From a virus: a stretch of 64,000 nucleotides of DNA. Position 1 is the stretch's first letter; every line of letters begins with the position of its first letter. The position numbers and the translations under genes are program-made. The notes under the pieces are model-generated. The model was not told the DNA's origin. It was given only the letters and a program-made list of their open reading frames with translations, and searched no databases. Positions 13,877 to 15,134 of this stretch are shown piece after piece. The stretch lies in IMG/VR virus record IMGVR_UViG_3300023084_000009, positions 30,337-94,336 of that record. One strand, written 5' to 3'.

Positions 13877-13905
13877 ATTATACACAAAAAAAGAGGGTTC
13901 GTCAA
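13877..13905 (-). promoter_or_regulatory. Sigma70-type promoter of the thyX-phoH unit
   Basis: TTGACG-N17-TATAAT. Confidence 0.8.
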
Positions 13906-13913
13906 GAACCCTC
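13886..13913 (-). terminator. Intrinsic terminator of the riboswitch operon
   Basis: GAGGGTTC-TTGAC-GAACCCTC hairpin followed by T7. Confidence 0.85.
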
Positions 13914-14057
13914 AGATCTTAATAAGTTTTCAAACCATTCTCGCAGATGGATTCGGTAACATGACCAATAGTTACATCCCCGATATTTGAGTTGATAACA
14001 TGATGGTGGTCTGTTATCTCTATCCATATCATCGTAATGATACCGATAGTCTTCCAT
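13902..14057 (-). CDS. 51-aa peptide with an LKYRG motif (DUF4278-like; not in ORF track)
   Basis: MEDYRYHYDDMDRDNRPPSCYQLKYRGCNYWSCYRIHLREWFENLLRSEGS; GAGGA upstream. Confidence 0.6.
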   Translation of the reverse strand: MEDYRYHYDDMDRDNRPPSCYQLKYRGCNYWSCYRIHLREWFENLLRSEGS

Positions 14058-14058
14058 T

Positions 14059-14154
14059 TTACTTCCTCGTTAGAAGAAGTACTTCTCCGTATAACAAGCA
14101 AATAAAAGCAACGCTAAAAAGGGTTCCGAACCCAGCTACTTGAAGTGCTTGCAT
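14059..14154 (-). CDS. 31-aa single-TM peptide
   Basis: MQALQVAGFGTLFSVAFICLLYGEVLLLTRK, 4 nt after the DUF4278 stop. Confidence 0.55.
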   Translation of the reverse strand: MQALQVAGFGTLFSVAFICLLYGEVLLLTRK

Positions 14155-14158
14155 GGTT

Positions 14159-14323
14159 TTACTTATTGTAAGTGTGACCGCGATAGCAGAATGTTCCGTG
14201 AATTTCGTCAACACCTTGCTGACACTCATACTTAACACCACGATAGGATGTCATAGCAATTTGTGCGTCGTGCAGTGCTGATGCTTTCTGGATTTGCTTT
14301 TTGATCAGAGTGAGTGTGTTCAT
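14159..14323 (-). CDS. DUF4278-like protein (possible glutamine synthetase inactivating factor-like)
   Basis: MNTLTLIKKQI...TSYRGVKY...FCYRGHTY (two YRG motifs), downstream of a glutamine-riboswitch-like RNA. Confidence 0.75.
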   Translation of the reverse strand: MNTLTLIKKQIQKASALHDAQIAMTSYRGVKYECQQGVDEIHGTFCYRGHTYNK

Positions 14324-14361
14324 TTGTCGTACCTGAAATACTAGGGTGAGTTTTAAGTCTC

Positions 14362-14635
14362 CCGTTCCTTCAGTCGTTTGCGTCCTGTGCTTCAAAACAC
14401 TTAGGGTCTGTATGTTCCATCCAATGGATGTAGATATCAGCCTTTTCAAAAGGAGTGAAGAGAGTTGTCTCATCTAATCCTTGCTTCAACCATTTCAAAT
14501 CTTCACAGCGAAGATAATTCTCCACTGGGACATGACTAAAAAAGATGAGTGCTAATGATAACATAGGATGAACGCTCCGTTCCGCGACTTACTTGCGTCC
14601 TATTCGCTATTCGCAAATAGCGAATGGGATGAACG
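14362..14635 (-). ncRNA. Double glutamine riboswitch (glnA-motif-like)
   Basis: Two copies of CGUUCAUCC...GGACGCAA...GGAACGG; AGUA/GAA E-loop elements; 10-bp perfect P2 hairpin; sits between the promoter and DUF4278. Confidence 0.8.
14370..14564 (-). CDS. 64-aa protein encoded inside a riboswitch arm
   Basis: ORF track; hydrophobic N-terminus, two Cys, ends DAND; start and stop lie in aptamer-conserved sequence. Confidence 0.6.
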   Translation of the reverse strand: MLSLALIFFSHVPVENYLRCEDLKWLKQGLDETTLFTPFEKADIYIHWMEHTDPKCFEAQDAND

Positions 14636-14642
14636 TAAGGGT

Positions 14643-14671
14643 ATTATACCCCTAATGTGAGTATTTATCAA
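14643..14671 (-). promoter_or_regulatory. Sigma70-type promoter of the riboswitch operon, with an embedded ATAAATA late motif
   Basis: TTGATA-N17-TATAAT; predicted +1 near 14636, immediately before the aptamer. Confidence 0.8.
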
Positions 14672-14695: not shown

Positions 14696-14747
14696 AAACC
14701 TTACAGAGCAAAAATTTTGCCGGGAATTTTTCCCTCGCTCAGGGAAA

Positions 14748-15107
14748 TCACTTCCTCTTTTTGGTTTTGGGTGCTTGATATCCCCAGGTCTTTGGGTTGT
14801 GCCTACCCTCTCCGTACTTTATACCTTTAAGTCCTTCACGAAACTTATCCCAGTACATATCAAACACATTTACTGCCTTTTGACTTCTGGTCAAGTCAAA
14901 ACATGTAATACCATCAACTTCATAGGTTACAATCCTTGCATCATTGGGGACGTCCTTGGTACACACCTGTTCCCAAGTTCCATTTTCAACTAGGATTTCA
15001 CATCCATATTTCTTTCTAGAGTTTTCCTTTTCTGTAGGTGTCCAGTTATACATAAGGTCTTCCTTTACAGGTGCCTCTTCAGACACCCTTGCCGTGTTTC
15101 TTGCCAT
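14748..15107 (-). CDS. Conserved cyanophage hypothetical protein
   Basis: P.DA..V.Y.......DL.R......FD.Y.DK, NPK.WG. Confidence 0.75.
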   Translation of the reverse strand: MARNTARVSEEAPVKEDLMYNWTPTEKENSRKKYGCEILVENGTWEQVCTKDVPNDARIVTYEVDGITCFDLTRSQKAVNVFDMYWDKFREGLKGIKYGEGRHNPKTWGYQAPKTKKRK

Positions 15108-15134
15108 TATAAACACTCCAATTGGTATTATATA

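Follow-up and report, generated by a model that had tools for sequence, protein, structure and literature searches.

The leader of a DUF4278-like gene in a T4-like cyanophage appears to be a composite glutamine riboswitch that holds a translated gene within its own helices. The window analyzed here is a stretch of 64,000 nucleotides, part of a 94-kb IMG/VR virus record, and the element covers positions 14636-14324 of its minus strand. We assign a probability of about 0.7 to this reading with its mechanistic steps included, and regard the architecture of the element and the coding status of its nested gene, ORF64, as highly probable. Comparative analysis points to an outer core with the type-1 (glnA) layout, in the order P1, P2, CGCA-AGUA, P3, GAAG and P1, whose P3 encloses a circularly permuted second core. 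In the latter, a hairpin (H) replaces P1, followed by its own CGUUCA, P2, CGCA and GGAACGG, without an E-loop, and the loop of its P2 (14568-14565/14386-14383) is, on the same comparative grounds, a translated gene of 64 codons. The parts of the unit, in the order of predicted transcription, are as follows:

14643-14671, minus strand: sigma-70-type promoter, with TTGATA at 14671-14666, a 17-nt spacer and TATAAT at 14648-14643 (11/12 matches)
14631-14635, minus strand: outer P1 5' strand CGUUC, partner of 14367-14363
14598-14629, minus strand: P2 of the outer core, UCC/GGA closing a 10-bp hairpin, directly after CGUUCA
14590-14597, minus strand: junction CGCA and AGUA, the latter (14593-14590) being the 5' half of the E-loop
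14585-14589, minus strand: P3 5' strand AGUCG, partner of CGACU 14376-14372, about 210 nt away
14575-14583, minus strand: 3' strand of the inner core, GGAACGG 14583-14577, overlapping GGAG 14578-14575
14570-14574, minus strand: 5' strand of the inner core, CGUUC, forming inner hairpin H with GAACG 14582-14578
14561-14568, minus strand: inner P2 5' strand, UCCU 14568-14565, then AUG 14564-14562, then U
14370-14564, minus strand: ORF64, 64 aa, between the strands of the inner P2
14383-14390, minus strand: inner P2 3' strand, AGGA 14386-14383 with a GCAC extension specific to the lineage of the window
14372-14382, minus strand: inner CGCA 14382-14379, AA, and the P3 3' strand CGACU 14376-14372
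14368-14372, minus strand: ORF64 stop codon UGA 14372-14370, overlapping the 3' half of the E-loop, GAAG 14371-14368
14362-14367, minus strand: outer P1 3' strand GAACG 14367-14363 and G14362, partner of the CGCA junction
14332-14338, minus strand: UUUCAG and G, pairing with CUGAAG 14373-14368 and containing the DUF4278 Shine-Dalgarno AGG
14159-14323, minus strand: DUF4278-like (IF17-like) gene, 54 aa, with YRG motifs
14113-14133, minus strand: intrinsic terminator-like hairpin and T run, with the terminator at 14133-14121, closing the unit after the DUF4278-like gene

The source of the window is a T4-like cyanophage. The survey of its ORFs placed T4-like cyanomyovirus genes (PhoH-like, ThyX-like and glutaredoxin-like) near the element, and the DNA of the region is 68-84% identical to S-WAM2, S-RSM4, S-RIM8, S-SCSM1, S-PRM1 and many further Synechococcus phages. 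TTGAC-type -35 and TATAAT boxes are kept among relatives, and the position of the promoter predicts a transcript start at about 14636, one base ahead of the aptamer. Metatranscriptome contigs of relatives span the leader, ORF64 and the DUF4278 gene, and some of them, from ORF-less relatives, skip the ORF; these contigs were not counted as evidence of expression, as transcript ends, strand and level are invisible in contigs and DNA carry-over is possible.

Several further features were observed around the unit. Terminator-like hairpins with a T run lie behind the upstream gene (14748-15116), at 14700-14745 on the minus strand, and a similar structure is found in S-BM3; this arrangement fits separate transcription of the riboswitch unit. 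The -10 box sits within the palindrome GGGTAT-A-ATACCC (14639-14652, minus strand), and the same place is palindromic in relatives, with arms that covary across phages (GGTCTAT/ATAGACC, GTGC/GCAC, CGTCAT/ATGACG). S-RIM8-like and S-IOM18-like phages carry at this position a GAAA- or GAAU-loop hairpin without TATAAT, and the palindrome could be a protein site on the DNA or a 5' RNA hairpin. Downstream of the unit, a 51-codon ORF (13902-14057, minus strand) encodes a KYRG motif reminiscent of DUF4278 peptides; it showed no Pfam match and no riboswitch-like leader. In one relative (locus L381), the glutamine element is preceded, at a distance of about 90 nt, by a manA RNA (RF01745, 173 bits, L381:1351-1540).

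The original prediction started from two motif copies on the minus strand, and both motifs were indeed found twice. CGUUCAUCC occurs exactly two times in the 64-kb window, at 14635-14627 and 14574-14566 (minus strand), against a chance expectation of 0.24, and GGACGCAA...GGAACGG occurs at 14600-14577 and 14385-14362 (minus strand), with no occurrence in 100 shuffles. Three details of that description also held: copy 1 contains a perfect 10-bp hairpin (14625-14616 with 14611-14602, UGCG loop), copy 2 is split by the 64-codon ORF (14564-14370, minus strand), and the last codons of this ORF, GAC GCA AAC GAC UGA, are the 3' motif of copy 2. The P2 pairing proposed for the split copy, UCCU-A-UGU with GCA-C-AGGA, is present in the window (14568-14561 with 14390-14383), but its conservation among relatives is limited to UCCU/AGGA, the extension varying by lineage. 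The extended helix is perfect (UCCUAUG/CAUAGGA) where the ORF of the relatives stops at UAG, and is missing from AAGGA forms.

What did not hold was the view of a serial pair of self-contained aptamers, the first copy being complete and the second split. Covariation among relatives shows that strands are swapped between the copies, which together make up, at the level of predicted secondary structure, one interlocked fold and not separate tandem aptamers. Outer P1 (14635-14631/14367-14363) joins the copy-1 5' strand to the copy-2 3' strand, P3 (14589-14585/14376-14372) joins AGUCG in copy 1 to CGACU in copy 2, and hairpin H (14582-14578/14574-14570) joins the copy-1 3' strand to the copy-2 5' strand. 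Relatives were retrieved by patterns fixed in conserved parts, so that the counts among the 249 unique ones are not frequencies. The innermost position of P1 is the sole variable P1 position in this set; read in the order copy-1 5', copy-1 3', copy-2 5' and copy-2 3', it is C,G,C,G in 236/249, U,C,G,A in 8/249, C,C,G,G in 4/249 and U,G,C,A in 1/249. The interlocked pairing is thereby intact in all 249 sequences, whereas the within-copy (tandem) pairing is broken in 13/13 variants. Outer P1 pair 5:36 is C-G in 240/249 and U-A in 9/249, and in hairpin H a G-C pair has become C-G in 12/249, in several P2 backgrounds; neither pair is ever broken. Most core positions are invariant and covariation support comes from few columns; as the nine U-A sequences belong to one lineage, independent events are few, about 1-2 in outer P1, at least 3 in hairpin H and at least 4 in P3.

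The remaining helices vary in the same concerted manner. Among relatives, the closing pairs of the outer P2 covary at all three positions (UCC/GGA, UUC/GAA, UCU/AGA, ACC/GGU, UCA/UGA), and P3 has four compensatory variants (AGUCA/UGACU, AAUCG/CGAUU, AGACU/AGUCU, GGUCA/UGACU), together with G-U intermediates and two matched 3-nt insertions that are present on both strands together. The fourth pair of the inner P2 is U-A in the ORF family of the window and C-G in families of 53-56 aa and of 66 aa (signal-peptide-like), with two exceptions in 150 (one U-G wobble and one C-A mismatch), and pairing in this helix is also maintained in relatives through G-U wobbles. The CGCA and AGUA junction is invariant among relatives and aligns with the Rfam RF01739 consensus, the second C of CGCA being the long-range partner of G14362. 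In a 50-sequence alignment, 99.9% of the cells of the interlocked structure were paired and 7 pairs had changed on both sides; no shuffle matched either the observed pairing or the observed covariation score, and sliding of the partners collapsed the pairing. In the tandem structure, the two P1 helices had 8 and 9 cells without a pair, and neither helix had a double change. Moreover, the AGUA half of the E-loop occurs in copy 1 only and the GAA half in copy 2 only, so that the two (14593-14590/14371-14369; GAA or AAA in relatives) meet in the interlocked fold only, the E-loop being judged here by sequence. Since strands are swapped between the copies, the ORF would also lie within P3 of the outer aptamer.

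Tandem glutamine riboswitches are nevertheless the published description (PMC2864571; 157 doublets in PMC9481103), and two independent, pseudo-cooperative aptamers, in which 5' and 3' strands pair within the same copy and the ORF lies in P2 of copy 2, have to be weighed against the interlocked fold. Both folds are possible in the window and alike in folding energy (-79.3 vs -78.1 kcal/mol), as the duplicated 5' strands are identical and so are the duplicated 3' strands, and the unconstrained minimum-free-energy fold of the window uses the local P1 of copy 1. Rfam scores fall on both sides. The window as such has no match at the gathering thresholds (35 bits for RF01739), and copy 1 alone is a weak match at 17-18 bits (17.4 bits with RF01739 and 18.1 bits, against a threshold of 33, with RF01704). 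None of the ORF-bearing relatives that were tested has an Rfam match. ORF-less natural relatives do reach the RF01739 threshold, with five matches at 35.2-45.9 bits. In one of these (L412), the best alignment is copy 2 alone (35.2 bits), as independent aptamers would have it, but in the other four (43.6, 45.9, 41.0 and 35.6 bits) the RF01739 alignment runs across the entire composite as one aptamer and treats the inner unit as an insert in P3. Together with the broken tandem pairing and retained interlocked pairing in all 13 variants, the P3 covariation that ties the two copies to each other and the location of the E-loop halves in different copies, this makes two independent aptamers an improbable account of the element, although the RNA could pass through the tandem fold transiently while it is being transcribed. 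A match to symR on the plus strand (35.7 bits, threshold 61) was discarded as the copy-1 hairpin read backwards.

In all relatives examined, the insert has stayed open as a reading frame and is subject to purifying selection, in line with the original prediction. Protein-based retrieval from IMG/VR gave 80 loci and 60 distinct intact proteins, and no frameshifts were found in these 60 A-type or in more than 100 B-type proteins. Over 54 unique 64-codon sequences, dN/dS was about 0.18, and variable sites at the three codon positions numbered 31, 20 and 52 of 55. Residues including the two conserved cysteines, C20 and C56, are retained in homologues at 34-62% identity. Judged from these substitution patterns, ORF64 is a real gene. 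An untranslated expansion segment of P2 that is open by accident could accommodate the GenBank annotations, in which homologues start internally and not at the conserved AUG beside the riboswitch strand, giving shorter products (51 aa in S-RSM4, S-RSM4_012, L001:712-867; 39 aa in S-WAM2, L002:748-867). It would have to account for the low dN/dS, the concentration of changes at third positions, the intact frames and the conserved cysteines, and is very improbable.

ORF64 belongs along its whole length (residues 1-64 of 64, E 1e-41) to phrog_13397, a family label without a function, and its homologues are confined to cyanophages and marine metagenomes. The AlphaFold model is a small helical protein (pLDDT 78); searches returned no Pfam family, no PDB structural match and no usable Atlas match. 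The end of the gene is constrained in another way than its interior: third-position diversity is 0.006 in the last five codons (the DAND-stop tail) vs 0.259 in the interior. An earlier UAG, of which the AG forms the start of AGGA, closes the ORF in 13 unique relatives, and the 3' motif beyond it is unchanged; as this motif is constant whether or not it is translated, the stretch is constrained as RNA. The stop codon at the ORF64 position is UGA or UAA in relatives.

The placement of the ORF within a riboswitch helix, also part of the original prediction, is supported by the location of its start and stop codons at the two P2 strands: the AUG lies against the 5' strand of the inner P2 or runs into it, and the stop codon lies within the conserved 3' strand. 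GGAG (14578-14575), 10 nt upstream of the AUG and inside the 3' strand of the inner core, is likely the Shine-Dalgarno site of ORF64. The AG in the loop of hairpin H that completes this GGAG is present in 56/61 ORF-bearing relatives, from a retrieval in which the loop was not fixed, vs 1/54 ORF-less ones.

Other relatives carry different genes in the same place, or none. A DNA pattern search yielded more than 120 further loci with a 53-56-aa family (phrog_504, very diverse) or a 66-aa family with a signal-peptide-like start at the position of ORF64, and most of these proteins end in DAND or DAHD, residues that the RNA motif itself encodes. The first P2 arm holds an ORF of 66 or 75 aa in 54 unique loci, phage S-IOM18 included. 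Its closing helix is UCUCAUG/CAUGAGA, UCUUAUG/CAUAAGA or UCCUAUG/CAUAGGA, with CAU opposite the start codon and with a 5' strand that changes in step with the stop codon (UGA/UCUCA, UAA/UCUUA, UAG/UCCUA). Forms without an ORF, both arms being short hairpins, made up 85 of the 87 unique matches of a further search. Among the 249 unique complete elements, an ORF occupies the second arm in 172, the first in 54, both in 39 and neither in 62, counts that reflect a biased retrieval and are not frequencies. At least five families of small two-cysteine proteins occupy one or the other arm, all with the cysteines about 35-37 residues apart; hhalign compared families A and B with a probability of 45% (E 2e-4), driven in part by the tail that the RNA motif encodes. 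The earlier idea of a cargo slot fits these comparative data, with an arm that is a short hairpin in many relatives and that holds at least five families across the two positions.

One lineage (L212, L218, L228, L229 and L231) was observed to lack copy 1, the upstream gene ending just before the second CGUUG, and to retain the ORF, the 3' half and the DUF4278 gene. As the orphan CGUUG has no partner, the sensor is probably dead there. Outside cyanophages, a scan of bacterial genomes gave only chance matches in GC-rich genomes (120/120 loci, none with the other motifs), the pattern being too degenerate. Likewise, none of the non-cyanophage matches L208, L210, L213-L216, L223, L224, L226, L232, L233, L235, L236, L238 and L240 has the leader layout, and those inspected in detail were chance occurrences inside unrelated coding sequences.

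The gene downstream of the element resembles DUF4278 (PF14105; E 4e-4, 21.1 bits, Pfam cut-off 25.3) and matches phrog_545 (E 1e-32); DUF4278 proteins are IF17-like (PMC6212724). A segment CU-R-AAG, made of the P3 end and the E-loop strand (14373-14368), pairs with the UU-Y-AG that opens the DUF4278 Shine-Dalgarno site. This anti-Shine-Dalgarno helix is present both in the minimum-free-energy fold of the window and in the RNAalifold consensus of ORF-less relatives, and its R/Y pair is G-C in 106, G-U in 54, A-U in 51 and A-C in none of 211 unique sequences. R is also the middle base of the stop codon of the nested ORF. By comparative analysis, the stop-codon segment has two alternative predicted partners, engaging either in P3 and the E-loop or with the DUF4278 Shine-Dalgarno site. 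DUF4278 and gifB genes are switched ON by glutamine riboswitches, which are thought to melt an inhibitory duplex (PMC6212724), and the helix described here fits that published model, in which glutamine binding melts the duplex that masks an IF17-type ribosome site. In many relatives (L003:940-975, L004, L209, L384, L388 and others) an extra module was observed between the riboswitch and the Shine-Dalgarno site, consisting of ACGGAUCC, a covarying hairpin (CUCG/CGAG, CGCC/GGUG, CUGA/UCAG) and then GAGAAGGUU; the window is without it.

With ORF-less, either-arm and both-arm forms all in existence, the switch works without an ORF, and some lineages (L212, L218 and others) have lost copy 1 and retained the ORF. 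The nested ORF could thus be passive cargo, brought in by recombination at conserved flanks and expressed, or silent, independently of the switch, its translation having no regulatory role and the riboswitch controlling the DUF4278 gene only. This we consider unlikely, as helices incorporate the start and stop codons of ORF families that are unrelated, and do so in both arms, the GGAG in the inner core is tied to the presence of the ORF (the loop counts above), the stop codon lies at the center of the switching strand, and a closing helix of 4-8 bp cannot stay undisturbed by a translated loop of 64 codons.

In the composite riboswitch that we favor, glutamine would stabilize the interlocked fold, in which the DUF4278 ribosome site would be free (ON, as shown for gifB leaders) and the GGAG and AUG of ORF64 would be buried (OFF). 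At low glutamine the fold would open, ORF64 would be translated and the DUF4278 site would be masked. Ribosomes that cross ORF64 and terminate at 14372-14370 would have to melt the inner P2, P3, the E-loop strand and outer P1. Because they must open the sensor helices, translation would reset or override the sensor, and the two activities would not be independent. The mutual exclusion of ORF translation and ligand-driven folding that was first proposed is reasonable from this anatomy, and nitrogen sensing and translation probably compete on one mRNA. A strictly reciprocal toggle of ORF64 and DUF4278 has at best an even chance; should ribosomes that terminate at the ORF64 stop codon release the DUF4278 site, expression of the two could instead be coupled. 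The inner core, which lacks the E-loop, is a candidate that may provide a second glutamine-binding site. The invariant core sequences beside each P2 loop are probably recombination arms, which would explain why the loops hold differing small genes, or none. The scheme in its entirety, with two helix-sharing glutamine cores acting as a two-way toggle, a reset by terminating ribosomes and P2 loops serving as exchangeable gene cassettes in marine cyanophages, is put forward as a speculative proposal that we hold to be doubtful in at least some of its parts.

Riboswitches are usually treated as non-coding leaders. Here, a putative metabolite sensor physically contains translated genes, and because start and stop codons are built into its sensing helices, ribosome traffic and ligand sensing would have to interact on one molecule. 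Our search of the literature found no paper on an ORF inside a glutamine aptamer or any other aptamer. The swapped strands suggest that an interlocked rather than a serial arrangement may apply to the many tandem glutamine riboswitches in print, in which case the modeling of their dose response would change. Cyanophage glutamine riboswitches are probably under-counted, since standard scans miss every ORF-bearing form tested, the window included. The regulated gene is IF17-like, kin to a glutamine synthetase inactivating factor, and thus bears on how phages manipulate the nitrogen metabolism of their ocean hosts.

Among known systems, the closest is glutamine-I (glnA motif, RF01739), as in the Synechocystis gifB/IF17 leader (PMC6212724). 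It shares with the element the CGUUCA/GGAACG P1, the variable P2, the AGUA/GAA E-loop, P3 and the three-way junction (assigned here by sequence), as well as the position upstream of a DUF4278 gene and the likely action as a translational ON switch that frees a masked ribosome site (PMC6212724). Unlike in glutamine-I, P3 of the window is a long-range helix that encloses both a 195-nt gene and a second core, the long-range pair is the C:G of type 2 in place of G:C, and the score is below the RF01739 gathering score. The tandem doublets described as pseudo-cooperative (PMC2864571, PMC9481103) likewise have two sets of core motifs a few bases apart ahead of one gene; their aptamers are described as independent, each with its own platform, whereas the strands here are swapped between the units. 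The doublets tallied in those publications very probably correspond to the ORF-less relatives described here.

With glutamine-II (Downstream-peptide, RF01704; structure PMC6698751) the element shares the CGCA...GGAACGG core and the C:G long-range pair. The glutamine-II core works in vitro as two separate strands (PMC6698751), so that the core tolerates split connectivity. Unlike glutamine-II, the element has no conserved P2 stem around GGAACGG, the window scores 18.1 bits vs a threshold of 33, and the 3-bp CGC/GCG stem of glutamine-II is not kept in the variants.

Structured RNAs that carry ORFs in peripheral loops include group I and II introns, with homing-endonuclease or maturase ORFs, and tmRNA. 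As in these, a coding sequence lies here in a loop closed by a functional helix, and the content of the loop varies among relatives. Unlike in introns and tmRNA, the host RNA is a predicted metabolite sensor in an mRNA leader, and the start and stop codons are part of the predicted sensing helices, so that translation would interfere directly with sensing.
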